DNA from: Geobacter sulfurreducens PCA
Lineage (GTDB): Bacteria; Desulfobacterota; Desulfuromonadia; Geobacterales; Geobacteraceae
DNA: 32,000 nucleotides
Direction: 5' to 3'
NCBI RefSeq assembly: GCF_000007985.2
Contig: NC_002939.5
Coordinates: 3,210,001-3,242,000 of the forward strand
Below are positions 3,576 through 28,814 of the stretch, piece by piece. Both the position numbers and the translations under genes were made by a program. The notes below the pieces were generated by a model. That model was not told where the DNA came from. It saw only the letters and a program-made list of their open reading frames with translations, and did no database searches. Numbering within the stretch: the first letter of the stretch is position 1; the number at the start of each line of letters is the position of its first letter.

Positions 3576-3656
3576 GGCAATGCCTCCGGAGTTATTGGGA
3601 GAACCGTGCGGCTCCCCATTGCACGGCAAAATTATAGTTCTCCTACATTAAGGAAC

Positions 3657-8492: not shown

Positions 8493-8534
8493 ATGTCAAT
8501 GTCCTTTCTGATCAGTGATGTGGCGCGCGGCACG

Positions 8535-9368
8535 TTACAGGTAGCACTGCTCCCCGAGACACTCCAGTGCCTTGGGAAGCTCCTCGTCACTGGGAGCGAC
8601 GCCGTGGTAGGACGCCTTGTTCTCGAAGAAGGAAACACCTTTCCCCTTGACGGTGCGGGCAACGATGGCGGTCGGCCGGCCGTTGACCTCCGCGGCCTGG
8701 GCCAGCGCGCCGACGATGGCGGCCATGTCGTGACCGTCGATATCGATGACGTTCCAGCCGAAGGCGCGGAACTTGTCGGTGACCGGCTCCACGTTCATGA
8801 CCTTTTCAACCTCGCCGTCGATCTGGAGGCGGTTCACATCAATGAGGGCACAGAGGTTGTCGAGCTTGAAGTGACCGGCGGCCATGGCCGCTTCCCAGAC
8901 CTGTCCCTCCTGGAGTTCGCCGTCGCCCAACAGGGCGTAGACCCGGCTCGCACTGCCGTCAAGACGCAGGCCGAGGGCCATGCCGTTGGCCATGGAAAGC
9001 CCCTGCCCCAGCGATCCGGTGCAGACCTCGACACCGGGGGTCTGCTTGCTGTCCGGATGTCCCTGCAGGTGGCTGCCGAGACGCCGCAGCATCATCAGAT
9101 CTTCTTTCGGGAAATACCCCGTCGCGGCAAGGGCCACGTAAAGAGCCGGCGCCGCATGTCCCTTGCAGAGGACGAACCGGTCCCGTTCGGACCAGGCCGG
9201 ATTGGTCGGATCATGCTTCATTTCGTGGAAGTAGAGGGCGGTCACCATATCGATGGCAGACAGGGAACCACCGGTATGCCCCGACTGGGACGAATGGAGT
9301 GTCTTGACAATGTCGACCCTGAGCCGCCGGGCCGTCTCTTCGAGTTGCTTGATCTTTTCGCTGTCCAC
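8535..9368 (-). CDS. transketolase, N-terminal (thiamine-diphosphate-binding) subunit
   Basis: 277 aa. GTG start with AAGGA 6-7 nt upstream. Motifs SGHTGGSLSAIDM, CKGHAAPALY and GSLGQGLSMANGMA...LLGDGELQEG (TPP motif). Confidence 0.9.
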   Translation of the reverse strand: MDSEKIKQLEETARRLRVDIVKTLHSSQSGHTGGSLSAIDMVTALYFHEMKHDPTNPAWSERDRFVLCKGHAAPALYVALAATGYFPKEDLMMLRRLGSHLQGHPDSKQTPGVEVCTGSLGQGLSMANGMALGLRLDGSASRVYALLGDGELQEGQVWEAAMAAGHFKLDNLCALIDVNRLQIDGEVEKVMNVEPVTDKFRAFGWNVIDIDGHDMAAIVGALAQAAEVNGRPTAIVARTVKGKGVSFFENKASYHGVAPSDEELPKALECLGEQCYL

Positions 9369-9933: not shown

Positions 9934-12348
9934 CTAATCCACCCCGAGGAGCGCCTTTATACGCGCCACCGCGTCCATGGCATCCCGGGCATAAAGGTCT
10001 GCGCCGATCCGGTCGGCATACTCCTGGGTCACCACCGCTCCCCCCACCATGGTGAAAGTCCGGATGCCGGCAGCCCTGAGGCGGGCGAGCACGTTTTCCA
10101 TCTCGGTCATGGTTGTGGTCATGAGGGCCGAGAGCCCCACCGCATCGGCCCCGTTGCGCTCGGCTTCCGCCACGATCCGGTCCGCCGGCACGTTCTTGCC
10201 CAGATCGATGACCCGGAACCCGTGGTTTTCCAGCAGAGTGCAGACGATGTTCTTGCCGATATCGTGGATATCCCCTTCCACCGTGGCCATGAGGATGGTC
10301 CCCTTCGATTCCGCCTCTCCTGTCATCTCCTGCTTGAGCCGCGCGAACGCGGCCTGCATGGCCTCGGCCGACTGCATGACCTGGGGGAGGAACACCTGGT
10401 TTTTCTCGAAGCGGCGCCCCACCTCCTCCAGTCCCGGCAGGAGTCCCTCGTTGCTCACCTGGAGCGGCTCAAGCCCATGGGAAAGGGCTTCCTCCACCAG
10501 GGAGACGATTCCCTCTCCGTCGCCGGTTATTACGGCCCGCGCGAGCCGCTGCCGGATATCGGGAAGCTCGCCCGTCGCTGCCGGCTCGGCCGCGGGAGGA
10601 GCAACGCCGGCATAGGCGGCGATGTAGGCGGCGGCGTTCGGATCCCGGTTCAGAAGCACCATTGACGAATGCCAGGCAGCCATCATCTCCTCTTCCTTCG
10701 GGTTCACGATGGCGGCATCGAGCCCGGCAGCCAGGGCCATGGCGAAGAATGCCGAAGAGATGAGCGGCCGGCGGGGAAGGCCGAAGGAGATGTTGCTGAC
10801 CCCGAGGACCGTGGGGCAGCCGAGCCGCTCCTTGACGAGCCGCACCGCTCTCAAGGTTTCCATGGCCCGCTTCTGCTCGGCGCTCACGGTAAGGGTGAGG
10901 CAATCGATCACCACGTCCGGCCGCCGGATACCCGCCTTGCCGGCCGCCTTGACGATCCGCTCCGCCACGGCCAGACGCCCCTCGGCGGTCTCTGGGATCC
11001 CCGTCTCGTCCAGTGCAAGTCCGATCACGGCCGCCCCGTACTTCCGTGCCAGGGGCAGAACGCGCTCCATGCTCTTTGCTTCGCCGTTCACGGAATTAAG
11101 GAGCACCTTGCCGTCGGCGGCCTTAAGCCCCCGCTCCAGGGCGGCGGGATCGGACGAATCAAGGACCAGCGGCGCGCCAACTGCAGTGGCAACGGTAACG
11201 ACGGCCCGTTCCATGGCGGCCGGTTCGTCGATTCCCGGCGTACCCACGTTAACGTCCAGAAGGACGGCGCCGCGGGCGGTCTGCTCCAGGGCCTCCCGCC
11301 GGATGTAGGAGACCTTTCCATCCTGCAGTTCCTGGGCAAATCCCTTCTTGCCCGTGGGGTTGATCCGTTCGCCGATGATGGCGGCAGGAAGCCCTGCGCC
11401 AATGGCCACCACGGTGGTGCGACTGGAGAGGAAGGTAACTCCCTCGGCCGGGCCACAGGCGCGCAGGGACTGATCCCGCAGGGCCAGGGCCTCCCTGATG
11501 GCGCGGATGTGGGCGGGCGTGGTGCCGCAGCAGCCGCCGATGACCCGGACGTTCAGATCCAGCAACCGGTCATGGAACGCCGTCATGTCGTCGGGAGTGC
11601 CGGGGAAGACGGTGGCGCCGTCCACAAGCGTCGGCAGCCCCGCGTTGGCCTGGGAAATGAGAGGAAGCCGCGTAACCCGTCGCATGGCCGCCATGACATC
11701 GCAGATGCCGTCGGGACCCAGGCCGCAGTTGGAGCCGACGATGTCGGCACCGGCCGCCTCCAGGGTCACCGCGGCGGCCTCGGGCGAGGTGCCGAGGACG
11801 GTCCGCCCCTCGTTGTCAAAGGTAAGCTGGGCAATGACGGGGGTTTCCGGCGAAATCTCGCGAATGGCGATGACCGCAGCACGGATTTCCTTGATGTCGA
11901 GAAAGGTCTCCAGGGTGATCAGGTCCGCCCCGGCGTTGATGAGCGCCTGTGCCTGCTCGCGGAAGATGGCGGCCATCTCGTCGAACGACACATCTCCCAC
12001 CGGCTCCACGAACTGCCCCGTGGGGCCGATTGATGCGGCCACGTAGGCCCGGTCGCCGCAGACCTCCCGCGCGATGGCCACGGCCCGGGCATTGATCTCG
12101 GCGACCCGGTCCTGAAGGCCATAGTGCTCCAGCTTGGCACGGCTGCCGCCAAATGTATTTGTAACGATGATATCGGCGCCGGCATCCAGGTATTCCCGGT
12201 GGACGCCGGCAACCACCTCGGGCAGGGTCAGGTTGAGTTCCTCGGGGGACTGGCCGGGTCTGAGCCCCCGCTCCTGGAGCATGGTCCCCATGGCGCCGTC
12301 AAGGACGAGGACCCGCTCGGCAATAGCCTGAAGAAAGGGTTGTTTCAT
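9934..12348 (-). CDS. metH: cobalamin-dependent methionine synthase, short form (Hcy-binding + pterin-binding + B12 cap/binding; no AdoMet reactivation domain)
   Basis: 804 aa. Hcy S-methyltransferase domain VLDGAMGTML...GGCCGTTP. Pterin-binding domain LDVNVG. B12-binding motif EGDIHDIGKNIV...SALMTTT...GGA. The protein ends right after the B12 domain. Confidence 0.9.
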   Translation of the reverse strand: MKQPFLQAIAERVLVLDGAMGTMLQERGLRPGQSPEELNLTLPEVVAGVHREYLDAGADIIVTNTFGGSRAKLEHYGLQDRVAEINARAVAIAREVCGDRAYVAASIGPTGQFVEPVGDVSFDEMAAIFREQAQALINAGADLITLETFLDIKEIRAAVIAIREISPETPVIAQLTFDNEGRTVLGTSPEAAAVTLEAAGADIVGSNCGLGPDGICDVMAAMRRVTRLPLISQANAGLPTLVDGATVFPGTPDDMTAFHDRLLDLNVRVIGGCCGTTPAHIRAIREALALRDQSLRACGPAEGVTFLSSRTTVVAIGAGLPAAIIGERINPTGKKGFAQELQDGKVSYIRREALEQTARGAVLLDVNVGTPGIDEPAAMERAVVTVATAVGAPLVLDSSDPAALERGLKAADGKVLLNSVNGEAKSMERVLPLARKYGAAVIGLALDETGIPETAEGRLAVAERIVKAAGKAGIRRPDVVIDCLTLTVSAEQKRAMETLRAVRLVKERLGCPTVLGVSNISFGLPRRPLISSAFFAMALAAGLDAAIVNPKEEEMMAAWHSSMVLLNRDPNAAAYIAAYAGVAPPAAEPAATGELPDIRQRLARAVITGDGEGIVSLVEEALSHGLEPLQVSNEGLLPGLEEVGRRFEKNQVFLPQVMQSAEAMQAAFARLKQEMTGEAESKGTILMATVEGDIHDIGKNIVCTLLENHGFRVIDLGKNVPADRIVAEAERNGADAVGLSALMTTTMTEMENVLARLRAAGIRTFTMVGGAVVTQEYADRIGADLYARDAMDAVARIKALLGVD

Positions 12349-12441: not shown

Positions 12442-13035
12442 TCACTGGGGCTGACGGGGCTCCGGCTCGGCGGGACGCTCTTTGGAGTAATCGGGCTCTA
12501 TCGGCTGGCGCAGGTCCAGGTGTCCCGTGAGTGATTCGGCCTCGGCGCCGTCCAGAAGGAACCTGACCTGTTTGAGCTGGGGGAAATTGAAGCAGACGGT
12601 ATTCACCACCGAATAGACCGCTGTCATCTCGGAGGAACTGCCGCCGGGGAGACCATCGGCCAACTCACGCCCGAAGTCGATCACCGCCGTATGTCCCTCG
12701 ATTCGCACGTGACGCACGGTTGTCGTGGGGGGAACCGTGGGCTGAAGCGCTCCCAACGGACCATTGATCAACTCGTCCAGGACCGCATCGACACAATCGG
12801 CAAGCTGATCACAGGCGGGGACTTCGCGCCCTTCCCGGGCAAGCCCGTCGCCCTCAGGGGCGGCAAAGAACAGGGTCACCCTGAAACTTCCGGTAGCCCC
12901 AGGCACGGGCTGAACCGTGGGAAGCTCGTGACGCTGACGATATTTGTCGAACATGAGAAGACCGATGACCAGCGCCGCTGCGGTGAAAGCCGCCAGCAGA
13001 ACAAGGCTCCGGCGACGGGGGGTGGAACGCTTCAT
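12442..13035 (-). CDS. GerMN-domain protein (membrane-anchored or secreted)
   Basis: 197 aa. N-terminal anchor SLVLLAAFTAAALVIGLLMF followed by a GerMN-like region (VTLFFAAPEGDGL...VLDELINGP...TAVIDF...VYSVVNT...VRFLLDG). Its ATG overlaps the murI stop (ATGA). Confidence 0.75.
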   Translation of the reverse strand: MKRSTPRRRSLVLLAAFTAAALVIGLLMFDKYRQRHELPTVQPVPGATGSFRVTLFFAAPEGDGLAREGREVPACDQLADCVDAVLDELINGPLGALQPTVPPTTTVRHVRIEGHTAVIDFGRELADGLPGGSSSEMTAVYSVVNTVCFNFPQLKQVRFLLDGAEAESLTGHLDLRQPIEPDYSKERPAEPEPRQPQ

Positions 13036-13850
13036 GGCCGCTCCTTTTCCGCATCGAGACTCACCTGGTAGACATCACCGAGCCTGCCGCCGATGAAGCG
13101 GTTGCCGACCCGAATGAAGCCGGCAGGCACATCAGTGACGAAGAAGTGGTGATTGCCCTGCTCACCGTCCGGCCGGAGCAGGTCACGCCCTCTCAGGATG
13201 TCGGCCACGGTGCGCGCCGTCTCTTCGGCCGAATCCACGAGCCTGACGTCTTCACCAACGGTTTCACCGATGACCCTCTTGAGGAGGGGGTAGTGGGTAC
13301 AGCCGAGTACGATGGTGTCGACCCCCTGCTCCCGCAGACCGGCCAGGTAGGTGCGGGCCGTCAGGCGCGCCACCTCGTTGTCGGTCCACCCCTCTTCGGC
13401 CAGGGGAACGAAGAGCGGACAGGCACGGGTGATCACCTCAACCTCGGGATTAAGTCGCTTGATGGCCTTGGCGTAAGCACTGCTCCGGATAGTCCCCTCG
13501 GTGCCGATAACCCCGACCTTGCCGGTTCGCGTGGTGGCCACGGCCCGGCGGGCACCCGGCTCGATGACGCCGACTACCGGGATGGGAAGCCGCTCGGTGA
13601 GGGCTTCGAGGGAAGCGGCCGAAGCGGTGTTGCAGGCCACCACCAGGAGCTTGATGTCGCGCTTCACCAGGAACGATGCGATTTCGAGGCTATAGCGGGT
13701 GACGGTTTCAGGGGATTTGGTCCCGTAGGGGACCCGGGCGGTATCGCCCAAATAGATGGTATCCTCCTGGGGGAGGACCTTGATGATCTCCTTGAGGACG
13801 GTCAGTCCTCCGACCCCCGAGTCGAAAATACCTATGGCTTTCCAGGGCAC
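13032..13850 (-). CDS. murI: glutamate racemase
   Basis: Motifs IGIFDSGVGGLTV, VVACNTASA and LGCTHYPLL (the two catalytic Cys motifs). The ORF extends to 13907. I prefer the GTG at 13850 (GGAG 7 nt upstream), which places the start directly before the conserved IGIFDSG. Confidence 0.9.
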   Translation of the reverse strand: MPWKAIGIFDSGVGGLTVLKEIIKVLPQEDTIYLGDTARVPYGTKSPETVTRYSLEIASFLVKRDIKLLVVACNTASAASLEALTERLPIPVVGVIEPGARRAVATTRTGKVGVIGTEGTIRSSAYAKAIKRLNPEVEVITRACPLFVPLAEEGWTDNEVARLTARTYLAGLREQGVDTIVLGCTHYPLLKRVIGETVGEDVRLVDSAEETARTVADILRGRDLLRPDGEQGNHHFFVTDVPAGFIRVGNRFIGGRLGDVYQVSLDAEKERP

Positions 13851-14066
13851 GATTCTTCTCCGCACGCGGACGCTCGCCGATATCGCCGGCCCGTGGGCAA
13901 CGGGCATCCCTGCCGGGAAAACGGTCGGCGCTTTCAGTTGTTGCGTCGCTTAAAAATGTATATACTAGGGAAGCCATATTACCTTGTCAAGCCATTTGCC
14001 CGGACACCCAATGGTGTAACCCCGCTTCATTTCAAGGTGAAAGACCGATAGCCGCCTGGAGCTCCC

Positions 14067-17671: not shown

Positions 17672-18544
17672 TCAGTTTTCGAGATTGACGCGAAAGAAAA
17701 GAACCAGCTTTGCCTTCTCTTCCTTGTTGAGGGGTACCGGTGACATGAGGGCGCCGGGACGGACGCTGCGGGGATTGTCGAGCCAGCGGCCGAGACGTTC
17801 GGGGGTCCAGGGCTCGCCCGGCTTGAAGGGGGTAGGGTAAAACGGGGAGAAGAGCCCGGAAAGGTTCGGCGCGACGGTGCCGGCACCCAGCCCTCCCTCG
17901 CCGGCGGTAAGGAGCCGGTGGCAGCCGCCGCACTTGGTGACGAACAGGTTGTCTTCCTTCGCGCGGACGGCCTCGAAGTGGACGACAAGAGGGACGGCAG
18001 CGGTCCCTTGTGCGGGAGCGGCCCCGGCAAAGGCCATGATGGCATTCACCACATCGGAGGCCCGGCGATCGTCGAACCGGAAGTCGGGCATGAAGAGAAC
18101 CGGCTGCCGGATTGCCACGAAGAGTCTCACCGGGTCATCGCCGACCAGACGGTCCAGGTCGGCGGCCAAGCGCGTCCCCGTTCCTCCCAGGCGATGGCAG
18201 CGGCGGCAGCCGAACCGCTCTGCCAAGCGCTTTCCCTCCTTCACCCGGACGCTGCCGGGAATCGTAAAATGAGACAGTTCCGCCGGCACGAGCCGATAGT
18301 GGGCGATGGCCAGACGCGTGCTTCTGCCGTTACCCCGGTGACAGGAGACGCAGGTGCCCTTTTCCGCATGGTGGGGGCGGTGGCAGGAGCGGCATCCCTC
18401 GCCCGGCGGCGGTCCGACGCAGGCGGACAGAAGAGCGGCGATCAGGATCAGAAGGGCCAGACGAGCGACCAATTCTCCCCCCGGAAGACCATGGCGAGCA
18501 CAGTCAGGGCTACAATGACGGCAAAGGCTCCCAGCGTGAGCCAC
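17672..18544 (-). CDS. tetrahaem c-type cytochrome, probable lipoprotein; cytochrome c subunit of the Rieske/cyt b complex
   Basis: CRSCH, CVSCH, CRRCH and CGGCH. The last two sit in class-I-like contexts with downstream Met. LLSAC is a lipobox-like sequence. The start is uncertain: ATG 18544 overlaps the upstream gene by 97 nt, while TTG 18472 overlaps it by 25 nt. Confidence 0.8.
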   Translation of the reverse strand: MAHAGSLCRHCSPDCARHGLPGGELVARLALLILIAALLSACVGPPPGEGCRSCHRPHHAEKGTCVSCHRGNGRSTRLAIAHYRLVPAELSHFTIPGSVRVKEGKRLAERFGCRRCHRLGGTGTRLAADLDRLVGDDPVRLFVAIRQPVLFMPDFRFDDRRASDVVNAIMAFAGAAPAQGTAAVPLVVHFEAVRAKEDNLFVTKCGGCHRLLTAGEGGLGAGTVAPNLSGLFSPFYPTPFKPGEPWTPERLGRWLDNPRSVRPGALMSPVPLNKEEKAKLVLFFRVNLEN

Positions 18545-18906
18545 GAGGAGGCGCGGTTACCCTCACCGAACCAGACGGCCCGCTCGGGCCGGTGCCTGCC
18601 AAGCCACGGCATGAGCAGGAACCAGAGAGAGAGGGCCACAATGCCCCAGGCGAAGCCGTTGCCGTGGCTCACGACCTCCTGGGTCCAGAGGAGAAACCAG
18701 GCCGATTTGGCCGGGTTTGGCGGGGCGGCCGGGTTGGCGGGGGCCAGGAGCGGCGCGGGGACAACCAGGGCGAGGAGCGCCAGCAGGAGCAGTCCGGCGG
18801 CAAAGGCCCGTTTGACCGGACGGAAAAAGTAGGGAGAACTCCGGACGTATTCCCCGCCACCCCGGGGCCCGCGGCGCAGGTCCCGCTCCGGTTCACCGCA
18901 ATGCAT
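18448..18906 (-). CDS. cytochrome b C-terminal / subunit-IV-like membrane protein (3 TM)
   Basis: Only the 3' part of track ORF 18448..19299 is used. ATG at 18906 lies 27 nt after the cyt b stop. PNPAKSAWFLLWTQEVV resembles the PEWY-type quinol-site motif of subunit IV. Three hydrophobic helices. Confidence 0.7.
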   Translation of the reverse strand: MHCGEPERDLRRGPRGGGEYVRSSPYFFRPVKRAFAAGLLLLALLALVVPAPLLAPANPAAPPNPAKSAWFLLWTQEVVSHGNGFAWGIVALSLWFLLMPWLGRHRPERAVWFGEGNRASSWLTLGAFAVIVALTVLAMVFRGENWSLVWPF

Positions 18907-18932
18907 AGGTTCTCTCACGGCATCCGCTCCTC

Positions 18933-19553
18933 TCACAGATAGGGAAGCAGCCCCTTGGTCTTGCGTACCCGGTAGAAATGGAGAAACGACAGCCCCATGA
19001 TGCCCAACGGAACGATGACCACGTGCAGGGCGTAGAAGCGCAGGAGCGATAGAGACTCTCCCACCCCGTCGGGAACAAGGACGGCCCGGAGCCAGCCGCC
19101 GCCCGGAAAGGTGGCCAGCAACTCCATGCCGGTACGGGTGGCCCAGAAGGCCAGTTGGTCCATGGGGAGCAGATAGCCGGTGTATGCCTCGAACACCGAC
19201 AGTCCCAGGAGTCCCACCCCCACCACCCAGGTCAGTTCGCGGGGCGGCCGGAAGGCACCGGTGAGCACGACCCGCAGGATGTGGAGGAACATCAGACAAA
19301 GGAACCCGTGGGAGGCAAGCCGGTGAAGCGCCCGCAGGTACTTTCCCCCCACAACCGTCGACTCCAGGAACAGAATCGAATCAAAGGCCCGGTCGGGGGT
19401 CGGCTGGTAGTAGAACAGCAGCAGTACCCCGGACACGATCAGGGCGAAGAATGCCGTAAAGGCGAGTCCGCCCAGACAGAATGTGTAGCTGAACCGCAGG
19501 TTCTCCCGCAGGACCACCCGGGGGAAGAGATGTTTGGCGAATTCCTTGATCAT
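18933..19553 (-). CDS. cytochrome b6-like protein (N-terminal four-helix, dihaem b)
   Basis: 206 aa. Conserved His pairs in helices B and D (RALHRLASHGF.., FYALHVVIVPLGIMGLSFLHF). Its ATG overlaps the Rieske stop (ATGA). Confidence 0.9.
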   Translation of the reverse strand: MIKEFAKHLFPRVVLRENLRFSYTFCLGGLAFTAFFALIVSGVLLLFYYQPTPDRAFDSILFLESTVVGGKYLRALHRLASHGFLCLMFLHILRVVLTGAFRPPRELTWVVGVGLLGLSVFEAYTGYLLPMDQLAFWATRTGMELLATFPGGGWLRAVLVPDGVGESLSLLRFYALHVVIVPLGIMGLSFLHFYRVRKTKGLLPYL

Positions 19554-19945
19554 CCGATGACAATCTCCACCCGCTCGCCCCGGTCCTCCACCCGATGGCG
19601 GGCCAGGGGACGGTCGGCGGGACCTTTGGCAACGTTTCCCTTCAGGTCGAAGCGGCTGCCGTGACAGGGACAGACAATCTCCGACGGCGTGACGGTTACC
19701 GTGCAGCCCAGATGGGTGCAGGTGAGGTCAAGGGCATAGAGCGTATCCCCATCCCTCATGACCGCCAGGTGCCGTTCCTTGAACACAAGGGCGCCCCGTG
19801 GGGGGATCGATGCCTTGGCAACGGTGAATCGCTCTCCCCCGCCCCGCCCCGCGGGAACGAGAAAGCGCCACGCCGCCGCCAGCGAGGCCGTGAATGCGGC
19901 TAACGCCGCGATGAACCGCCGGCGTCCCCGGTCAAATCCCGCCAT
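19550..19945 (-). CDS. Rieske [2Fe-2S] protein with twin-arginine signal
   Basis: Internal ATG at 19945 of track ORF 19550..20470. MAGFDRGRRRFIAALAAF is a Tat motif. The cluster boxes CTHLGC and CPCHGS are present. 131 aa. Confidence 0.9.
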   Translation of the reverse strand: MAGFDRGRRRFIAALAAFTASLAAAWRFLVPAGRGGGERFTVAKASIPPRGALVFKERHLAVMRDGDTLYALDLTCTHLGCTVTVTPSEIVCPCHGSRFDLKGNVAKGPADRPLARHRVEDRGERVEIVIG

Positions 19946-21165
19946 CGTTCCAGATACCCTTTCGTGTATTCGGGGGTCCGCACCCCCATGCGCCGCACCC
20001 GCTCCGGCTCCATGAACGTACCGTTGGCAATCCGCTGGCCGGTGCGGTCCCAGAAGGAATCGAGAGAAAGGCCATCGGCCCGGGTCCGGTAGATCCGCTC
20101 GTGGGGCGGTTCCAGCAGAAAGCGCCGCGGGTTGTCGTGACAGCCGTCGCACATGACCGTTTCGCGCCGGATGGTGTGAGGGGCGAAGGTCTTCCAGCGG
20201 GCTGCCAGGAGCCGGTTCTCCTGCCCCACTACCCGTTCGTTGCGGAAATCCGAATGGTAAAGGATGAACTGGGGCCGGGCCGGGCTCACCCGCCCCGCTT
20301 CGTTGAGCGCGAGGGGGGGGGCGTCCTGCCGCTTGAGATAGGCACTCTTTACCCAGTCGTCCTGACGGGTGACCACCTGGAAGCGGGACTGGAGCCGGGG
20401 GCTGTTGGTGAAGCGCAGCCAGAAGGTACCGTACTCCTGGGGTGCCCACGCGGCATGGCAGGCAACGCATTCGAGCCGGTCCTGGTGGGCGGCGATGCGG
20501 TGTTCAACCACCCGCGGATCCGGCGTGTGACAGTCGGTGCACCTCTTTGCGGTCCGCTTGCCGGCAGCCAGGCTCGCCATGGAGTGGCAGTCGGCGCACC
20601 CCATCCCTGCCTCGGCATGGACGTCGGGCAGCATGGGGAGGAAGGTCTCGCCGTTGGCCAGCTCACCCCGCTGGTAGCGCAGGGCATCCTCCCGGGGCGC
20701 CCGGCCGTGGTAGTCGGTGCCCACGAAGTAGCCCCGGTGGCAGGAGAGACACTGGGCATCCCGGGGGCGGGCCAAGGCATGGCCGCCGCCGGGATGGCAG
20801 TCGAGGCAGCCCGTTACGTGGCAGCCGCCGCACTGGTTGCGGAAGAATGCTCCGTCGGCTCGCCCCAGGGTATCGGCCACGAAGCGCCGTTCCGCGCTCC
20901 GGGTGGTCATGGGGTGGTCGAAGAGACGGTCGTATCCACGGTGGCAAGCCACGCACCGGGCGGCGCGGTCGGCCACGAGTGCCGGGTTGCGCACAGTGGC
21001 CCGGTCGTCGCCGTGGCAGGGGGAACAGCCGATGCCTGCATGGGGGCCGGTAAGGACATCCCGATGGCAGACGCGGCAATTTTCGCCCGTGGCGGCGTCA
21101 GCGGGCCACGGCGCGACCGGCGCTGCCAGTAAGCAGGCGGCGATGCAGAGCATCATCCAGCGCAC
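19900..21165 (-). CDS. decahaem c-type cytochrome (periplasmic)
   Basis: 421 aa. GTG start (ATGs also at 21156 and 21153). Signal peptide ..MMLCIAACLLAAPVAPWPADA. Ten CxxCH motifs: CRVCH, CSPCH, CVACH, CGGCH, CLDCH, CLSCH, CADCH, CTDCH, CVACH, CDGCH. Confidence 0.85.
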   Translation of the reverse strand: MRWMMLCIAACLLAAPVAPWPADAATGENCRVCHRDVLTGPHAGIGCSPCHGDDRATVRNPALVADRAARCVACHRGYDRLFDHPMTTRSAERRFVADTLGRADGAFFRNQCGGCHVTGCLDCHPGGGHALARPRDAQCLSCHRGYFVGTDYHGRAPREDALRYQRGELANGETFLPMLPDVHAEAGMGCADCHSMASLAAGKRTAKRCTDCHTPDPRVVEHRIAAHQDRLECVACHAAWAPQEYGTFWLRFTNSPRLQSRFQVVTRQDDWVKSAYLKRQDAPPLALNEAGRVSPARPQFILYHSDFRNERVVGQENRLLAARWKTFAPHTIRRETVMCDGCHDNPRRFLLEPPHERIYRTRADGLSLDSFWDRTGQRIANGTFMEPERVRRMGVRTPEYTKGYLERWRDLTGDAGGSSRR

Positions 21166-22969
21166 GATAGTCGAGCTCCTTGCGGTAGATGGGATCGTCG
21201 GCCCGGGTGTGGCAGACGATGCAAAGGTTTGCCCGCCAAACCCGTTTTGCCTCCGTGTCGTTCAGGGGGCGTGAGTTCTCGCGGGTGATGGCGGAGAATG
21301 CCCGTACCAGACCACCCTCCATGGTCTGGAAACCGTCCAGGGGCTTCGCTTCGTTCTTGGTACAACGCAATGTGCCATCGATCCGCCCTTTTCCCGTCAC
21401 ATGCTGGCCAAAGCCGAGGAAGGCGGGGTTGGCGTGGCATTCGCCGCAGCCGATGGCCCGTTCGCCGGTGTTATGGGAGTAGAACGGCGCGAACCGGAGC
21501 TGCTTTTTCCCCTTGAAGGTAGAGACGTAGCCCTCCCGGGACAGGGTGCCGTCCGGCTCCACCACGGTGACGAACGTCTGGCAGCCGGGGGTGACCGGCG
21601 CAATGCCCCCGCGCTGGTTCAGAGCCAGGGGAAAGGGATAGAGCATCCGGTAATCCTCGGTTTCCGTGAAGAGCCCGGGGGTGTCCATTCCCTTGATGAA
21701 GTCGGTGCCGGTGCGGCCCTTGTCGTATTTCGTATGACAGCCGTAGCATTGGGGGACCGCCCGGGAATGGCAGGCGGTGCATTCGAGCCGGTCGTGTCCG
21801 ACCACGGTGTGGGCCGGGGAGCCGGTAATGACCTTGCTGGTGAATACCCTGCCGCTCCGCTTGCCGAGCACCGCAACCCTGCCATCCTTCACGAAGACAT
21901 TTGAGTAGGGGCGCCCCTTGGCGGTAACGATCATGCGCATGCCCGGCCGCATCTGCACGGGGTAGCGGGCCGACTCCCGCACCGCCTCCTCGTTCTCCCG
22001 CACGATCTCCCGCCAGCGGGGCGGCGAAGTTGCACTGCCGTGGCAATCCTCGCAGCGAATCTCCACCTGGTGGTAGAGGTTCTCGTAGGCATAACCGTCA
22101 CCCATGATGTCGCGGGAGGTGTGGCAGTCGATGCACTCCATCCCCCGGGCGTGGTGAATGTCGGGAGGGATGCTCGTCACGTTCCGGTTGCCGCTGGTGA
22201 GCTGGGGGCCCGGGAAGCCTCCCCTGGTCGGCACGAGACCGTTGTTGCCGTCGTTCAACCCCAGGTAGGAGAGAGCGATGCGGCCGCTGCGGTTGTGGCA
22301 GCGGAAGCAGACGTCGTTGCCGGGGAGCCCTTCCATCCGGTGGCTGGACGCGGCGGGCCCACGCAGTCGCATGGTCAGGTCGCTGCCCTCATAGGCGGAA
22401 TCGGCATTGCGGGGAAAGTGGCAGGCCGCGCAGCCGGAGCCGTGCCCCACGCCCCAGGCATAGCGGTTTTCGATCCCCACGTGGCAGAGGGAGCAGAACT
22501 TGCGGTAGAGCTCCCCCGAGAGGTTGTTCAGTTCGGCCACGCCGTTGACCCTGACCCGCTTCCCCTCTGCGTCGTAAAGGTCGTCCTGCCGTGCTCCGTA
22601 GCGCCGGCCATCCTCCCCTTCCCAGGTAAGCTGGATATTCCTGATGATCCCCGTATTGGTATACATGAGTCCCGAGCGGACCCGGCCCAGCTGATAGGGG
22701 TGGCAGGCACCGCAACTCTTTTCCCAGACAGCCGGGTCCGAGGGGTTCCGCGGGGCGAACATGGTCCGGTGGGCGTCCTCTTTGCTCCGGGCCCGGCCGT
22801 CGCCGCCGTGGCAGGAGACACAGGAGGGATGGGCCGGTGAGGCGTGCTCGATCTTCCCGTGGCAGGAGAGACACGAGGCGTTCTCTCCCCCGCTGCTGCC
22901 GCACCCGGCAGCACTAAGGAACATAACGGCGACCGCCAGCATGAGAACGACGTCGGAAATCCTGTTCAT
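21098..22969 (-). CDS. dodecahaem c-type cytochrome, lipoprotein
   Basis: Internal ATG at 22969 of track ORF 21098..23071 gives MNRISDVVLMLAVAVMFLSAAGC (lipobox). Twelve CxxCH motifs: CLSCH, CVSCH, CGACH, CSLCH, CAACH, CFRCH, CIDCH, CEDCH, CTACH, CYGCH, CGECH, CIVCH. Confidence 0.85.
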   Translation of the reverse strand: MNRISDVVLMLAVAVMFLSAAGCGSSGGENASCLSCHGKIEHASPAHPSCVSCHGGDGRARSKEDAHRTMFAPRNPSDPAVWEKSCGACHPYQLGRVRSGLMYTNTGIIRNIQLTWEGEDGRRYGARQDDLYDAEGKRVRVNGVAELNNLSGELYRKFCSLCHVGIENRYAWGVGHGSGCAACHFPRNADSAYEGSDLTMRLRGPAASSHRMEGLPGNDVCFRCHNRSGRIALSYLGLNDGNNGLVPTRGGFPGPQLTSGNRNVTSIPPDIHHARGMECIDCHTSRDIMGDGYAYENLYHQVEIRCEDCHGSATSPPRWREIVRENEEAVRESARYPVQMRPGMRMIVTAKGRPYSNVFVKDGRVAVLGKRSGRVFTSKVITGSPAHTVVGHDRLECTACHSRAVPQCYGCHTKYDKGRTGTDFIKGMDTPGLFTETEDYRMLYPFPLALNQRGGIAPVTPGCQTFVTVVEPDGTLSREGYVSTFKGKKQLRFAPFYSHNTGERAIGCGECHANPAFLGFGQHVTGKGRIDGTLRCTKNEAKPLDGFQTMEGGLVRAFSAITRENSRPLNDTEAKRVWRANLCIVCHTRADDPIYRKELDYRALDDALHRRLLTGSAGRAVAR

Positions 22970-23032: not shown

Positions 23033-23066
23033 CAAAAAAGGGCCGGCAGCGGTTCGGCTGCCGGCC
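23033..23066 (-). terminator. rho-independent terminator after the pentahaem cytochrome gene
   Basis: Minus strand reads GGCCGGCAGC-CGAACC-GCTGCCGGCC (10-bp perfect stem) followed by CTTTTTTG. It lies 29 nt after the TAG at 23095-23097. Confidence 0.75.
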
Positions 23067-23094: not shown

Positions 23095-24447
23095 CTACTT
23101 GCCCTTGGCGCTGATGCTCACCTTCTGGGTGAACTCATGCCAGAGGAACGGATCGGAATTCATTGAACCGAAGGGGAGATACCAGAGTTTCACCTCCACT
23201 TCCAGATCGTGGGCCAGGGTCTTGCGAACCTTCTTCCCGTCCTCCACCACATCCTCGGTGGGGAAGAGGATATCGAAGCGCTCGTGGATCTTCTTGCCCG
23301 GCGGCAGACCCGTATCCTCGATCATACCGCTTTTCTCATAGGGGCCGCGCCCCATCCGGTCACCCCGGGCCAGCTGCTGGGGCACCGGCATGTAGATCTT
23401 TTCCTGATTGAACACTTCTTCGCCGTCTTTTGTCTTTGCAATGACCGACAGAACCAGTCGGTTGGGGGTCGGTCAGCCATCGGGGATCGAGTGGCCCGCG
23501 TGATTGGTCATCTCGACCTTCACCACTGCCTTGGGCGTCACCAGCGCCCCGTCCCGCCAGTGATAGCCATAGGCCTCGGCCTTGAACTCAACGGCGGCCT
23601 TGGCCATGCCCGGGTCACGGTAGCTCTGCATGTTGTGCCCGAGCTTGCTCTTCTTCATGTGGCATTCCTGGCAGTTTTCCCGCCCGCCCTCGGCCTTGTA
23701 GGCCCAGAGGTAGCTCGCATAGCTGGTGCAGCACTGGGTCGGGTTATCCAATTCCAGGTTCGGCCCCAAGCCGTGGCATTGGCCGCACTGGATGGACTCT
23801 GACATGATCGGACTGACCTTCATCGTGGGGAATGCCGCAGAGGGGTGTTCCCCTTCCTTGGAGCCGTAGACTACCCCGGCCTGGGGATAGCCGTCGGTCC
23901 ACTTGTGGGTGATGGCGTTACGGTTATGGCAAACGAGGCAATTGATGTTGAGGCTCTTGAGCTTGTCGGCCTCTTCAACCGCCTTTGCCGAATCCTTTTT
24001 CCTCAGTGCATCCTGCCAGCTGCCGATGGTGGAGATGATCTCCTTGGCCACCGAGTCCTCGGCGTCGGCCAGTTGGGGGAGATGGCACTTGGCGCATCCC
24101 ATCAGGTGCTCAACTTTCACGTCCGACGGGCTTTTCACCCCCGAATATTCCCATTCCATGAGGCCGTTGACCACAGCAGTCATGAAGGTGGCGGCAGTCC
24201 GGCCGGTACCGAAGATTGAGCGGGCATGGATCGACTGCTCCCATTCATCGTGGACTTCCTGGTGACACTCGATGCAGGAGCTGGAATCATACATCTTTGC
24301 CAACTCGGCCATGGTCTTTGCCTTGCCGCTCTTGGCAACGATCGTCTCCTGCCAGCCGATGCCCGCCTTTTCGGCAAAAACCGGTGCGGCGGCACAGAGC
24401 GCAAGCGCTGCGGCAGCAAGGGTCAGCCATGCGGTTTTGTGCTTCAT
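23095..24447 (-). CDS. pentahaem c-type cytochrome with C-terminal beta-rich domain; contains one in-frame TGA (23475-23473): candidate selenocysteine codon, or else a disrupted gene
   Basis: Track ORFs 23473..24447 and 23095..23415 are in the same frame, and the TGA is the only stop between them. Signal peptide MKHKTAWLTLAAAALALCAAAPVFA. Haem motifs CIECH, CAKCH, CLVCH, CGQCH and CQECH. The reading continues ..MTNHAGHSIPDG-TGA-PTPNRLVLSVIAKTKDGEEVFNQEK.. There is no RBS before the track's GTG at 23415. A terminator follows only the second ORF. Confidence 0.65.
23443..23475 (-). promoter_or_regulatory. 33-nt hairpin starting at the in-frame UGA (SECIS-like candidate)
   Basis: Minus strand: UGACCGAC-CCC-AACC-GACU-GGUU-CU-GUCGGUCA. 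This gives an 8-bp lower stem that includes the UGA, an internal loop, a 4-bp upper stem, and an apical tetraloop beginning with G. Confidence 0.45.
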
Positions 24448-24510
24448 GGTCTACTCCTTTTTTGTGCCATACATAAATAACCGTATTGCAATAAACGAAT
24501 TTCAGCCCAT

Positions 24511-24543
24511 AAAAAGAAACCTCCCCGCCCCAGGACGGGGAGG
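24511..24543 (-). terminator. rho-independent terminator after the small secreted protein gene
   Basis: Minus strand reads CCTCCCCG-TCCTGGGG-CGGGGAGG followed by TTTCTTTTT. It lies 17 nt after the TAG at 24560-24562. Confidence 0.7.
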
Positions 24544-24559
24544 CGGTCATAACAACCGA

Positions 24560-24874
24560 CTAGCAGCCCTGGAGAGCGTCGCCGGCGGATTCGGAGATGG
24601 TCATGGAAGAGTCCGTCTTGATCTTGGCAGCCTTGGCCTTGCCGAACTTGAGGACGACTTCGTCGCCTTTCACCTCGACAATGGTCGGCATACCGCCGCT
24701 GGCCTGAACATGGGCGCCCTTCTTGGCCCAGGCGGGTACTTTCTCGGCCTTGACGGTAACCTTCTCGCCATCAACCTTGACGACCTTCCCCGAGAAGGAG
24801 CCGGCGGCAAAGGCGAATGCCGCCATGGAAAGGGCCACGAGAGCCGCCGCGATCGACATCATGATCTTCTTCAT
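24560..24874 (-). CDS. small secreted protein ending in a C-terminal cysteine (..DALQGC-stop)
   Basis: ATG with AGGAGG 8 nt upstream. Signal peptide MKKIMMSIAAALVALSMAAFAFA. The mature part is about 80 aa, Lys/Val-rich and beta-like (KVVKVDGEKVTVKAEK..IVEVKGDEVVLKFGK). The only Cys is the last residue. Confidence 0.75.
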   Translation of the reverse strand: MKKIMMSIAAALVALSMAAFAFAAGSFSGKVVKVDGEKVTVKAEKVPAWAKKGAHVQASGGMPTIVEVKGDEVVLKFGKAKAAKIKTDSSMTISESAGDALQGC

Positions 24875-24913: not shown

Positions 24914-26134
24914 CTAGAAAAGGAGCTGGAGCTGGGTGATGAACGTGGTGAAGTCCTCGCTCTTGACTCCGTTGTACGTGCCTTCCTTGTCGAAGTCGGT
25001 CTTGCTGATCTCGGCCGTCAGTTTCAGGTTCTGGCCCCAGATGTAGTAGTTGGCGCCGACGCCGTACCAGTTGATGTCCTGGTCCACCACATTGTTGAGG
25101 CTGGCGAAGCTCCACCGCTCGTAGCGGCCGAAGATCTGGAGCGGGAAGTTGGGGAGCATGTAACCGGCCTTGGCATACCAGCCGTTTTTCTCGCCGTTGA
25201 GGCCAATGGCACCGCTGTCCACATTGGTGGATACGGTATATGCGTCATCCATGCTGAAGTCGGCGTAGGCGGCAGAAGCGGTGATGGTGCCGAAGCCTTC
25301 GACCGGATACTCGAAATAACCGTCAACAGTCCAGGCGGTGTAATCCTTGGAGTCGGACTGAGTGGCGGCATTGCCATAAGCGACGTTCGGCTCGTACTGA
25401 ACCCCGGCGCCCACGGTCAGGACCTGCTTCTCGCCCATGTAGGTACCCTTGTAGCCGTAATCCTTCTCGGGATCGAGCAGTGTCACGTGAGCGCGGGCCG
25501 TATAGCGGAAGTTCGAATCAGGCGAAGAATAGCCGTTGGCATCCCGGTCGCCGGCCTTGCGGCCTTCCATCGCGTCGAGGCGATACTGGAAGACGTCGTT
25601 GAACAGGTTACCCCAGACCGCCACACCCACGTCGCGGGTCGAAACATAGGGGGCGCGGATAAAGAGGGACCGGTCCAGGGTCAGAGGCATTTCGCACGCT
25701 TCGAGATTCTCACGGGTCAGGTTGTGCTTGAATTTACCCACATTGACCCGGAACCCATCGTGGAATTTGAAACGCATAACGGCGTCGAGAAGCTGGAACT
25801 CCGTGTCGGCGCTGTTGTCGCCGACTCCGAGGGTACCCACGTTGGGATCTTCGGTGAATTCGGTCTGAACATAAAGGCTCAGCATATCGCCGTACTTGCC
25901 CATAAAGGCGAGACGGTTGCGGCGGAAGTTGAAGTTGGTGGTGGTATCGTCACCGTTGGCGCCGGAGCCGTTGTCGCGGATCGACATCTGGAACTGGCCC
26001 TTGTAGTCGATCTGGAGGGCGCCCTGGTCTTCGGGGCCAAAGGTGATCCGGGGACCGGCGAACGCCGTGCCGGCCAGGAGGGCCGTACCGAGGGCGACGC
26101 CGGAGATGGTCGATATCTTGCGCATATTCATCAT
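24914..26134 (-). CDS. outer-membrane beta-barrel porin, OprO/OprP (phosphate-selective porin O and P)-like
   Basis: 406 aa. Signal peptide ..ALGTALLAGTAFA. Alternating amphipathic strands. FNFRRNRLAFMG and LLDAVMRFKF are typical of porin O_P. C-terminal aromatic signature ..ITQLQLLF. Confidence 0.8.
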   Translation of the reverse strand: MMNMRKISTISGVALGTALLAGTAFAGPRITFGPEDQGALQIDYKGQFQMSIRDNGSGANGDDTTTNFNFRRNRLAFMGKYGDMLSLYVQTEFTEDPNVGTLGVGDNSADTEFQLLDAVMRFKFHDGFRVNVGKFKHNLTRENLEACEMPLTLDRSLFIRAPYVSTRDVGVAVWGNLFNDVFQYRLDAMEGRKAGDRDANGYSSPDSNFRYTARAHVTLLDPEKDYGYKGTYMGEKQVLTVGAGVQYEPNVAYGNAATQSDSKDYTAWTVDGYFEYPVEGFGTITASAAYADFSMDDAYTVSTNVDSGAIGLNGEKNGWYAKAGYMLPNFPLQIFGRYERWSFASLNNVVDQDINWYGVGANYYIWGQNLKLTAEISKTDFDKEGTYNGVKSEDFTTFITQLQLLF

Positions 26135-26201: not shown

Positions 26202-27608
26202 CTAGCAGCCACCGCCACCGGTCGAGCCGCCACCACCGGTCGTACCGGTAACGGTGCTGCGGTAGGCCCTGTCGGCATCTTCAATCTGGTTGCCTTGCGC
26301 GAAGCTCGGCTCAACCCCGAAGACCCGGGACGTGTAGTTGATAATAGGCCGCTGGGCAAGATTCGTGGTGCTGATGGTCCGCCCAACGTTCCAGGTCAGG
26401 TTGTCGGTCAGGAGGGTGGTGTCCCAGATAGACCCGACGGCCAGCTTGCCGCCGGCATTGACCGTAGCGCCGGTCGTATCGGTGGCGGTATGGCTCGACG
26501 AGGCCATCAGGTTCCATTGACCCAGCGAGCCGTCATACCATTTGACGTCAACGTTGGAGTTGTAGTAGGCGATGCCGTCAAGTGCGAAATAGGCCACGGA
26601 TGCAGCGTTGCCGGCCCGACAGAAGACGATGAAGGTCTTTGCAGAATCGCGGTTCGCATCCCCCAGGGTGGTAACACCGTCTCCGGCCACTGCGGCACTG
26701 ATGTCGGTTTGCAGGGTTGCCGCGTCTTTGAAATAGAGAGTGCTTGCAGGCGAAACCACGTTGGCGTACGGGAAGCGGTACGAGCCCTTGATGGCGCCGT
26801 CGAACGGAGTATAGAAGTTGCCGTCGAGGAGGTCCGTTGTCGAGGACACCGTGCCGGGACGAATCGTGTCAAGAATAAAGACTTTGTTTGCGTTACCGGC
26901 AACGACTCCCTGAACATAGGCGATCATCTCGGGCAGGGAGACGCGCATGTCGGTGTTTACCCGGCTCGTGCCGTTCTGGGCCACACCGTAAGTTGACTTC
27001 TGGATCGTCGGCACGGCCGTGGTCAGCGAATAACCCGCGGCAACCCAGGCGGGGTTTCCGCCTTGCAGAACCTTAAGACGGGCTTTGGGGAAGCCCCAGT
27101 AACGGAACGTCGTGTACGCCCGCGCCACGTTGATGGTGTTGTTGGCGTTATTGGTGAGCACGATGGTCGTATTTCCGTCGATGCCCGCGTTTTGAATCAG
27201 AGCGTCCATGGTTGCGCCGGTGCAGACCATGTTGCCCGTGACACTCAGGGGCCCTTCAGCACGGGTATTGTCCTGGAAAGCATTCGCTCCGGCAGAAATC
27301 AATTGTGCCCCGGGGATGTGTCCGACGGTGTTGTATTTGTTGGAACCATCGGTTTCATTGCTGGAGACGTCGAGAATCACAACGCGGTCGTAGCTTCCGC
27401 TCGCCTTGTTCACCAGTCCTGCGTCAATCCATGCCTTGAGTTGCTCTGCTGTTACCAGGGCATTGGCCGTCTGCATCGTGACGGCAGATGTGGCCGGCTG
27501 ATCATAGCCCCCGCCACCGCAGCCCCACAGAGTGAGCAGCGTCAGCGCAACAACGCCGAGCATGCTCGCCAGCATGACACGTCCCTTTCTCCATGCCTGT
27601 TTCGCCAT
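26202..27608 (-). CDS. tandem-rhodanese-domain lipoprotein (sulfurtransferase-like) with Gly-rich C-terminal tail ending in Cys
   Basis: ATG with AAAGGAGG 4 nt upstream. Lipobox LTLWGC. The first rhodanese-like domain lacks a catalytic Cys (TTIVLTNNANN). The second has the active-site loop FIVFCRAGNAAS. The C-terminus is TVTGTTGGGGSTGGGGC-stop. Confidence 0.8.
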   Translation of the reverse strand: MAKQAWRKGRVMLASMLGVVALTLLTLWGCGGGGYDQPATSAVTMQTANALVTAEQLKAWIDAGLVNKASGSYDRVVILDVSSNETDGSNKYNTVGHIPGAQLISAGANAFQDNTRAEGPLSVTGNMVCTGATMDALIQNAGIDGNTTIVLTNNANNTINVARAYTTFRYWGFPKARLKVLQGGNPAWVAAGYSLTTAVPTIQKSTYGVAQNGTSRVNTDMRVSLPEMIAYVQGVVAGNANKVFILDTIRPGTVSSTTDLLDGNFYTPFDGAIKGSYRFPYANVVSPASTLYFKDAATLQTDISAAVAGDGVTTLGDANRDSAKTFIVFCRAGNAASVAYFALDGIAYYNSNVDVKWYDGSLGQWNLMASSSHTATDTTGATVNAGGKLAVGSIWDTTLLTDNLTWNVGRTISTTNLAQRPIINYTSRVFGVEPSFAQGNQIEDADRAYRSTVTGTTGGGGSTGGGGC

Positions 27609-27878: not shown

Positions 27879-28814
27879 ATGGATTTGATCCTTCTTAATA
27901 CTTTTATAAAGGTCGCGACCATCGGCAGCATCTCAAAGGCTGCAGGGCTGCTTTGCGTCACCCAGTCCGCGGTTTCGCGACGCATCAAGTTGCTGGAAGA
28001 ACACTACGGCCGCCCCCTCCTGGAGCGTACCGGAACCACGCTGAGACCCACCCCTGCCGGAAAAATGCTGATCGAAAAGGCCAAGTCGATCCTTGACATC
28101 GAGCGCCAAATTCTCGACAGCCTTGGTGTCAAGGAAACGAGGCAGAAGATATCCTTCTGCTGCACCCCGTCCTTCGGCATCGGCAGCCTTCCGGCAATCC
28201 TCGACTCCTTTCTGGCCGACAAAGGGGAGAAAACAGATCTCAAGTTCGTTTTCGCCATGCCCGAGGAGGCTCTTGACGGGATCAGAAGCGGCAGGTTCGA
28301 TCTCGCCCTCATCGAGCACTGCGACGATCTTGACCTGAACGGCTACCGGACGTATCCGCTCCCCCCCGACGAGATGATCTTCATCAGCGCCCCCGCGCGC
28401 GGCATCGACATGCCTGCACCGGACATCGACCGGTTGCTGGGGGAGCGGCTCTACCTCAAGAACGAAACCGGTTGCGCCAAACGTTTTCTCGACCGGAACA
28501 TGCGCTCCATCGGGCGCGACGGCAACGAGTTCGTCAACACCGTATACTTTGACGACTGCCCGTTCATCCTCAGCCAGGTACGCGCCGGCAACGGCATCGC
28601 CTTTGTCTCGGCAACGATCGTTCAGGCCGAGCTTCGCGCCGGCACACTGCGCGCACACCGGATCGCCGGATTCGACCCGTTCCGTCCCCGCACCATTGTA
28701 TTCAGCCCGCACATGGAGTGTTCTCCCGCTATTCACGCCTTCACTGAAACGCTCTTTGCAGCCCACGACATCCCCTCCTCCGCTGCCCTGTTCTCCTCCC
28801 GGCGCACCCGGTAA
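27879..28814 (+). CDS. LysR-family transcriptional regulator
   Basis: 311 aa. N-terminal w[42 protein letters not shown], then a LysR substrate-binding fold. Divergent from the rhodanese operon. Confidence 0.9.

Follow-up and report, generated by a model that had tools for sequence, protein, structure and literature searches.

An in-frame UGA within the selenoprotein gene mccsep (extKL) of Geobacter sulfurreducens PCA and a candidate 19-nt selenocysteine insertion sequence

The mccsep (extKL) gene and its in-frame UGA

We analyzed 32,000 nucleotides of Geobacter sulfurreducens PCA DNA (contig NC_002939.5, positions 3,210,001 to 3,242,000; this whole stretch is hereafter the window, and coordinates are counted from its first letter). 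Its minus strand carries, at 23095-24447, the gene mccsep, also called extKL (gsu2937-gsu2936), which comprises 450 codons plus TAG and specifies a pentahaem cytochrome c selenoprotein of the periplasm, a polysulfide reductase, as judged from translation, identity to Protein Data Bank (PDB) entries and the NCBIfam model NF040886. A single frame runs from the ATG at 24447 to the TAG at 23097-23095 and is broken solely by the TGA at 23475-23473. The first open reading frame (ORF; 24447-23473) yields 324 aa and is terminated by this TGA, past which 125 sense codons follow in the same frame before the TAG; the 19 codons without ORF assignment between the two ORFs read PTPNRLVLSVIAKTKDGEE. The read-through translation is 450 aa long, with the residue specified by the TGA at position 325, and contains five CxxCH motifs, starting at C58, C118, C170, C221 and C259. 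The haem 1 motif, CIECH (C58-H62; 24262-24276), is invariant among homologues, whereas the motif of haem 2, CAKCH (C118-H122; 24082-24096), is that of the active-site haem, for which H122 is the proximal ligand in the published structure (PMC13510729). The motifs of haems 3, 4 and 5, namely CLVCH (C170-H174; 23926-23940), CGQCH (C221-H225; 23773-23787) and CQECH (C259-H263; 23659-23673), were placed by translation and homologue alignment.

The signals flanking the frame also describe one gene. Sequence reading places a Shine-Dalgarno element, AAGGAG (24454-24459), 6 nt 5' of the extKL ATG, and nothing comparable precedes GTG 23415, the start of the second ORF. A signal peptide spans residues 1-25 (24373-24447), with cleavage before EKAGIGWQETIVAKS, the mature N-terminus obtained by Edman sequencing (PMC13510729). 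The terminator search returned an intrinsic-terminator-like hairpin of 10 bp (9 G-C pairs) with a T-run at 23041-23066, 29 nt past the TAG; no other such site follows the gene, and the interval from the TGA to the TAG contains none. A preliminary description, made from the nucleotide sequence without database searches, had proposed that the two ORFs form one gene joined by a selenocysteine (Sec) UGA, citing the shared frame with the TGA as its only stop, the 19 unassigned codons, a pentahaem cytochrome, a second ORF without a ribosome-binding site and a terminator placed only after that ORF. Each of these readings was borne out at the sequence level, and the proposal as a whole is upheld by the PDB identity, by the published peptide and N-terminus, and by the gap that NF040886 leaves at the UGA.

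NF040886, "multiheme c-type cytochrome (seleno)protein ExtKL", is an equivalog hidden Markov model with a curated cut-off of 250 bits. ORF1 matches its positions 5-314 with 452.2 bits and ORF2 its positions 316-422 with 136.8 bits, so that the cut-off is passed, both halves of the model are covered and column 315 is left over for the TGA. In the Sec/Cys column, ...PDG-[U/C]-PT..., the window has TGA (U325), and the Cys-type relatives P0105 and P0119 align at the same column; the ligands that mark ExtKL, five CxxCH motifs together with H122 and C239, are all present. A PDB sequence search with the read-through protein retrieved 9wt8, 9wta and 9wtb, "Multiheme cytochrome c selenoprotein (MccSep)", and the U325A entries 9wt9 and 9wtc. 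Residues 1-450 are identical to 9wt9 apart from position 325, where our query had Cys and the U325A chain has Ala, and the wild-type 9wt8 scores almost equally. Both the published Sec peptide, VEMTNHAGHSIPDGUPTPNR, and the mature N-terminus equal the window translation. Searches against Pfam gave generic multihaem matches only. We thus hold it almost certain that the region is mccsep (extKL), one gene in which the UGA at 23475-23473 is decoded as Sec, the catalytic residue U325.

The selenoprotein is correctly recognized but already known, since MccSep has been published and NF040886 curated. Jahan et al. 2018 (PMC5877670) had listed gsu2937-gsu2936 as a predicted Sec-containing pentahaem cytochrome within extHIJKLMNOPQS, and a 2026 review counts ExtKL/NF040886 among known prokaryotic selenoproteins. 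Mihara et al. (Sci Adv 2026; PMC13510729) purified the native protein, which began with EKAGIGWQETIVAKS and contained 4.9 Fe and 0.96 Se per subunit, and identified VEMTNHAGHSIPDGUPTPNR by electrospray ionization mass spectrometry (ESI-MS), the carbamidomethyl-Sec form being observed at 2238.0 Da and calculated at 2237.8 Da. Their crystal structures, at 1.75 Å, present a homotetramer with a five-haem helical cap and an immunoglobulin (Ig)-like stem: the N-terminal helical domain holds the five haems, and an Ig-like domain at the C-terminus places U325 at the distal side of haem 2, which has the unusual ligands H122 and C239. The active site requires U325 and K372, both contributed by the C-terminal domain, and the codon of C239, the distal haem ligand and catalytic partner of U325, lies at 23731-23733. 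MccSep is reported to reduce polysulfide preferentially and selenite less efficiently and to be needed for elemental-sulfur respiration; the U325A, U325C and C239H variants were inactive in vitro and gave no complementation in sulfur-respiration assays. The working model proposed in PMC13510729 has the selenolate attack as a nucleophile, giving a Sec-Se-(S/Se)-S-Cys239 intermediate, with electrons arriving via the haem chain. The product has therefore been purified, mass-mapped, crystallized and shown to be a polysulfide reductase, and it is an enzyme of elemental-sulfur respiration in Geobacter and Desulfuromonas. The agreement also means that a sequence-only reading was able to recover a true selenoprotein.

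To place the UGA among relatives, we assembled 80 loci from species-representative genomes, including Geomonas, Geotalea, Desulfuromonas, Desulfuromusa, Trichlorobacter and metagenome-assembled genomes (MAGs) bearing the labels Nitrospirota, Vicinamibacteria and others; the best match was 84% identical, and G. sulfurreducens itself was not among them. At the Sec column, TGA stands in 80/80 loci and never TAA, TAG or a sense codon, and nearly all loci with enough contig have a further 110-132 in-frame codons, the exceptions being L022 (38 codons) and L046 (71 codons). Protein comparisons used the 120 best database homologues. Of these, 95 stop at the Sec column after just 291-329 aa, the last residues being ...PDG in 94 and ...PAG in one; gene calling has thus cut off 95/120 of the closest public protein entries at the Sec codon. 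Public gene calls split the selenoprotein into 324-aa and 98-aa products (for example, L081:3001-3975 and 4057-4353), the public assembly collection contains the identical 324-aa call in 153 blocks, and some of the truncated entries bear misleading names such as "glutaredoxin-related protein" and "uncharacterized protein Veg".

The same homologues bear on a further proposal of the preliminary description, in which Sec would sit beside a His-x-x-His motif (HAGH) acting as a metal or chalcogen site. C239 is kept in 120/120 homologues, H122 in 119/120 and H319 in all of them; position 316, the first His of HAGH, is R or K in 115/120. The His-x-x-His metal site was rejected for this lack of conservation at H316, and in the crystal structure U325 sits instead at the distal pocket of haem 2 (H122/C239; PMC13510729).

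Candidate SECIS hairpins 3' of the UGA

The UGA would be decoded by the bacterial SelB/tRNA-Sec pathway, with recoding directed by a selenocysteine insertion sequence (SECIS) stem-loop inside the coding sequence, directly 3' of the UGA. Synonymous variation points to such an element. In a codon alignment of 75 complete genes, normalized synonymous codon entropy at conserved residues was 0.34 in codons 326-336 versus 0.77 elsewhere, and nowhere in the gene was a 9-column window lower than codons 326-334; every L331 and L333 codon is CUG and every S334 codon UCG. Low synonymous variation at this position is the signature of a putative RNA element immediately downstream of the UGA.

With the U of the UGA numbered +1, two hairpins can be drawn here. 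The long one (23442-23475) comprises 34 nt, UGACCGAC/CCCC/AACC/GACU/GGUU/CU/GUCGGUCA, and is the minimum-free-energy (MFE) fold of free mRNA from the UGA on. This is the hairpin that the preliminary description had put forward as a SECIS element; the fold is real, but one C had been dropped, so that it had been given as 33 nt rather than 34, without the full internal loop CCCC/CU, and with an upper stem starting 8 nt rather than 9 nt after the UGA. The short hairpin, +14 to +32 (23444-23462), folds as ACCGAC/UGGUUCU/GUCGGU. The 3' arm GUCGGU (+27 to +32) pairs with either of two CCGAC copies, that at +4 to +8 in the long hairpin or that at +15 to +19 in the short one; because both hairpins use GUCGGU and CCGAC is duplicated, they are mutually exclusive.

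Conservation separates the two. The RNAalifold consensus of 62 distinct class-1 sequences is exactly ACCGAC (+14 to +19)/GUCGGU (+27 to +32) with the loop UGGUUCU, and in 55 distinct class-1 sequences taken for pairing counts this helix is 99.7% paired, three changes of A18 to G18 being tolerated as G-U pairs. The lower stem of the long hairpin fares worse in the same sequences, G2-C33 being broken in 40/55 and G6-C29 in 6/55 without compensation, and it is just 50% paired in the 14 loci of a second class (see below). Its upper stem is 98.6% paired in class 1, with A13-U24 broken, again uncompensated, in 3/55. Third-codon positions +6, +9, +12 and +33 vary freely, contrary to what the long hairpin implies, whereas those from +15 to +30 are constrained: +15, +21, +27 and +30 are fixed or nearly so, and +18 and +24 show essentially one alternative. 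The synonymously constrained stretch thus falls within the short hairpin.

The position of the ribosome argues in the same direction. When the UGA occupies the A site, roughly 12 nucleotides of the mRNA directly past it lie inside the ribosome, so that only the short hairpin could exist during decoding. As a stand-in for ribosome-held mRNA, we folded the RNA from any start between +10 and +14 and obtained exactly the short hairpin in each case. The lower stem of the long hairpin would at that moment be inside the ribosome, leaving a 4-bp stem of -2.4 kcal/mol. The long form would then arise only in ribosome-free mRNA, competing for the same 3' arm.

We further compared both hairpins with the bacterial SECIS (bSECIS) consensus model of Zhang & Gladyshev, as summarized in PMC13188914, which specifies a loop of 3-9 nt, an upper stem of 4-16 bp, a G among the first two loop nucleotides (typically as N(0-1)-G-[G|U]), 16-37 nt from the UGA to the apical loop and an MFE of -7.5 kcal/mol or lower. 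Loop lengths (7 nt in the short hairpin, 4 nt in the long), upper stems (6 and 4 bp) and energies (-8.8 and -15.5 kcal/mol) are within range for both. The loop U-G-G-U-U-C-U of the short hairpin has the usual form, whereas G-A-C-U, which starts with GA and not G[G/U], satisfies the minimal rule only. The spacing of the short hairpin is 16 nt (+4 to +19), at the lower limit of the model, and that of the long hairpin is 13 nt (+4 to +16), below it.

The Escherichia coli fdhF SECIS, whose sequence was verified in E. coli genomes and then folded for comparison, is likewise a coding-region stem-loop directly 3' of its UGA. The fdhF hairpin begins 11 nt past the UGA and the mccsep short hairpin 10 nt past it, and in both the apical loop contains a GGU that lies 7 nt in from the hairpin's 5' end, so that the GGU loop and UGA distance of the short hairpin appear to mirror those of fdhF. 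The short hairpin differs from fdhF in having no bulged U, a loop of 7 nt (UGGUUCU versus GGUC) and a stem of only 6 bp, and it shares with it neither sequence similarity nor an Rfam match.

Several observations weigh against this assignment. In free RNA starting at the UGA, the long hairpin is favoured, at -15.5 kcal/mol. Two-sided compensatory changes were found in none of the long, short and two class-2 hairpins, because the sequences are too conserved (columns are 91-93% identical); the choice between hairpins therefore rests on uncompensated breaks and on the location of synonymous constraint, and the orthologue alignment proposed in the preliminary description confirms the TGA column and gives no hairpin formal covariation support. 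Rfam returned no SECIS-like match, either for the whole window at the gathering threshold or for 23300-23600 at an E-value limit of 10. Finally, a homologue with Leu (CTG) at the Sec column (L084:2-1240) keeps a look-alike hairpin, CACCGGC-UGGUCCU-GUCGGUG, of -12.8 kcal/mol, and hairpins of this kind are therefore not strictly confined to Sec-type genes; its presence in L084 could reflect descent from a Sec-type ancestor, gene conversion or another constraint on the hairpin. Three Cys-type genes served as a negative control and gave two weak folds and one moderate fold, a weak and ambiguous control at n=3. The fold energy of the 76-nt region differed little from that of dinucleotide shuffles (z = -0.54), and stability alone is therefore no better than chance. 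The sole match of the Rfam search, to ybhL, was set aside as chance.

The alternative, in which the 34-nt hairpin, based at the UGA and capped by a GACU tetraloop, serves as the functional SECIS, has in its favour the MFE structure from the UGA onward and the well-paired upper stem, and it resembles fdhF, whose UGA is likewise within an extended lower stem. It also spans essentially the same stretch as the "SECIS-like" stem-loop predicted on the UGA plus 30 nt in PMC13510729. Set against the broken lower stem, the freely variable positions around the constrained stretch, the short spacing and the ribosome footprint, we consider this alternative possible but distinctly the less likely of the two. 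RNAalifold, pairing counts, the bSECIS rules and synonymous constraint together make the short +14 to +32 hairpin the best SECIS-core candidate, and it is probably the functional core recognized by SelB. Of the SECIS proposal in the preliminary description, the idea of an RNA element 3' of the UGA is supported by the synonymous constraint, but the long UGA-based form is poorly conserved and the short hairpin fits better; the likely SECIS is in this way narrowed to a 19-nt hairpin.

Some relatives carry a different sequence at this place. Class 2 comprises 14/79 classified loci (L031, L046, L048-L050, L052, L053, L060, L064, L065, L069, L071, L077 and L079), several of which are Nitrospirota MAGs, and is also seen in L087:7373-8764. 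Over approximately +1 to +42 after the TGA, these loci encode LVLEV versus LVLSV (LVLDV in L049; V first in L031 and L079) and lack the GUCGGU arm. The best fold of their invariant sequence, GGUCCUGGAAGUGACCGC, is a hairpin at +18 to +38 with a GGA loop and approximately -7.2 kcal/mol, 96.9% paired, which suggests SECIS turnover inside one selenoprotein family.

Other relatives lack the catalytic residue altogether. Among the top 120 homologues, 25 are full length (>=400 aa), and in 23 of these the U325 column is occupied by G, T, I, V or A ("PGSGS", "PDSTS", "PDSIS" and the like), with five CxxCH motifs, H122, C239 and H319 retained. Such a Sec/Cys-less paralogue lies directly upstream of the true MccSep in 4/4 non-Geobacter loci, of which L084, L085 and L086 are Cys-type and L087 is Sec-type (paralogues at L084:2-1240, L085:4662-5996, L086:6001-7368 and L087:6001-7353); the window has no equivalent. 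In L087, the paralogue/MccSep pair is followed by ExtM/N/Rieske/cytochrome b/ExtQ/ExtS-like genes. The tandem arrangement and the retention of C239 hint that the paralogue may be a hetero-oligomeric or regulatory partner. The published survey retained solely sequences with Sec or Cys. Taken jointly, that the real SECIS is the 19-nt hairpin, that the family replaced its SECIS at least once and that a tandem Sec/Cys-less paralogue is usual outside Geobacter is a combined proposition to which we give about an even chance. What is new here beyond the published enzyme is the refined SECIS core, the second SECIS class in Nitrospirota and related MAGs, and the tandem paralogue.

Other readings of the UGA

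Bacterial Sec insertion is generally inefficient, and the UGA might also terminate a substantial fraction of ribosomes, the 324-aa haem domain without the Ig-like domain being a second, possibly functional product. The antibody used in PMC13510729 sees only the C-terminal GSU2936 part, so that a 324-aa product would escape detection. The same antibody gave a band of ~49 kDa in Western blots, and the full-length protein is therefore made; the purified native enzyme contained 0.96 Se per subunit, the active site depends on U325 and K372 of the C-terminal domain (PMC13510729), and the downstream frame is kept in nearly all 80 loci. Truncation, which the preliminary description had listed as an alternative, accordingly fails as a replacement for the full-length product, and some accompanying termination would be compatible with these data; as a source of a substantial second product, we regard it as improbable.

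Much less probable still is read-through of a stop codon by a near-cognate tRNA, for Trp or Cys, in place of Sec-tRNA. The window itself lacks Sec machinery: consistent with the preliminary description, which had seen no selA, selB, selC or selD, we found no tRNA in the 32 kb and no Sel family (selA/selB/selD) among the ORFs scanned, an absence that counts against Sec decoding when the window is taken by itself. However, the native protein holds stoichiometric selenium, and the Sec machinery must therefore lie elsewhere in the genome. The ESI-MS mass of the Sec peptide, together with the severe impairment of the U325C variant (PMC13510729), excludes near-cognate decoding for practical purposes. 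A nonsense mutation, sequencing error or pseudogene lesion in a former Cys or Trp codon, of which the first two were also raised in the preliminary description, is outwardly favoured by the presence of a stop codon, where gene callers cut the gene into products of 324 and 98 aa. It has a negligible probability and is excluded by the TGA in 80/80 species-level genomes (Desulfuromonadales, Nitrospirota, Vicinamibacteria and others), alongside the same 324-aa call in 153 public assembly blocks and the measured selenium and mass-mapped Sec peptide (PMC13510729).

The ext cluster and comparison with known systems

The gene lies within the extHIJKLMNOPQS cluster, in which the ExtH, I, J, M, N, P, Q and S models match flanking minus-strand genes and a Rieske ORF occupies the ExtO position. 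Upstream of extKL are extH, for a rhodanese-like lipoprotein (26202-27608; NF040901, 577 bits), which accounts for the rhodanese neighbour noted in the preliminary description; extI, for an outer-membrane porin (24914-26134; NF040900, 705 bits); and extJ, for a small protein of 104 aa (24560-24874; NF040942, 83 bits). Between extJ, whose stop is at 24560, and extKL, which starts at 24447, the minus strand contains a second terminator-like hairpin (24519-24544), with an 11-bp stem, 8 G-C pairs and a T-run. With terminator-like sites on either side, extKL may be transcribed under separate, sulfur-inducible control or be subject to attenuation; by-eye inspection of the extJ-extKL spacer, the only one made, revealed no convincing sigma-54 or Fur-type motifs.

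Downstream are extM, for a c-type cytochrome of 623 aa from ATG 22969 (21098-22969; NF040943, 1073 bits; the same call is made in identical contigs), and extN, for another c-type cytochrome (19900-21165; NF040967, 701 bits), with 12 and 10 haems, respectively, according to PMC5877670. The extM stop (21098) and the start of the longest extN ORF (21165) overlap by ~68 nt, and calls in identical contigs put the extN start 56-68 nt inside extM; either the overlap is real or the extN start codon is mis-set. The ORF with extO (19550-20470) has a Pfam Rieske Fe-S domain at its residues 231-290; the true start of extO is probably near 19950, and ExtO is given as 14 kDa in PMC5877670. The model NF040968 ("b-type cytochrome iron-sulfur cluster-binding subunit ExtO"; 704 bits) hits the same 421-aa multihaem ORF as NF040967 ("c-type cytochrome ExtN"; 701 bits), whereas the actual Rieske ORF has generic Rieske matches only, and NF040968 looks mislabelled or redundant. 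The cluster continues with extP, for a cytochrome b (18933-19553; NF040969, 220 bits), an ORF with extQ, for a membrane protein (18448-19299; NF040970, 192 bits, the model covering ORF residues 151-283), and extS, for a c-type cytochrome lipoprotein (17672-18544; NF040971, 371 bits).

Divergent from extH, the plus strand encodes a LysR-family regulator of the multihaem-cytochrome-associated type (27879-28814; NF041036, 311 bits), a candidate regulator of the ext cluster; it also has a weaker match to the "selenium metabolism-associated LysR" model NF040786 (110 bits). The remaining genes of the window, all on the minus strand (879-3629, 3938-5311, 5422-6912, 7548-9368, 9934-12348 and 13032-13907), are ordinary. 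They include those for an NHL/Ca-tandemer repeat protein of 916 aa, a sigma-54 response regulator together with its histidine kinase, a split transketolase, glutamate racemase and a MetH-like methionine synthase without the C-terminal part of its model.

Among known systems, the closest is MccSep/ExtKL of Geobacter sulfurreducens PCA itself (gsu2937-gsu2936; GS_RS14775; PDB 9wt8, 9wt9 and 9wta-c; NF040886), with which the window protein agrees at 450/450 residues, including U325, the five CxxCH motifs, the H122/C239 ligands of haem 2 and the signal peptide, as well as in the gene order extHIJ-KL-MNOPQS; no protein-level difference from the published MccSep was detected. More distant parallels are drawn in the discussion of PMC13510729. 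The multihaem sulfur enzymes TsdA and SoxAX share with MccSep the His/Cys ligation of the catalytic haem, and the multihaem reductases NrfA, MccA and OTR likewise have a multihaem electron wire leading to an active-site haem. Unlike all of these, to which it is overall unrelated in fold and sequence, MccSep performs catalysis by a Sec supplied from a separate Ig-like domain, and it is the first described enzyme to join a His/Cys-ligated haem with selenocysteine.

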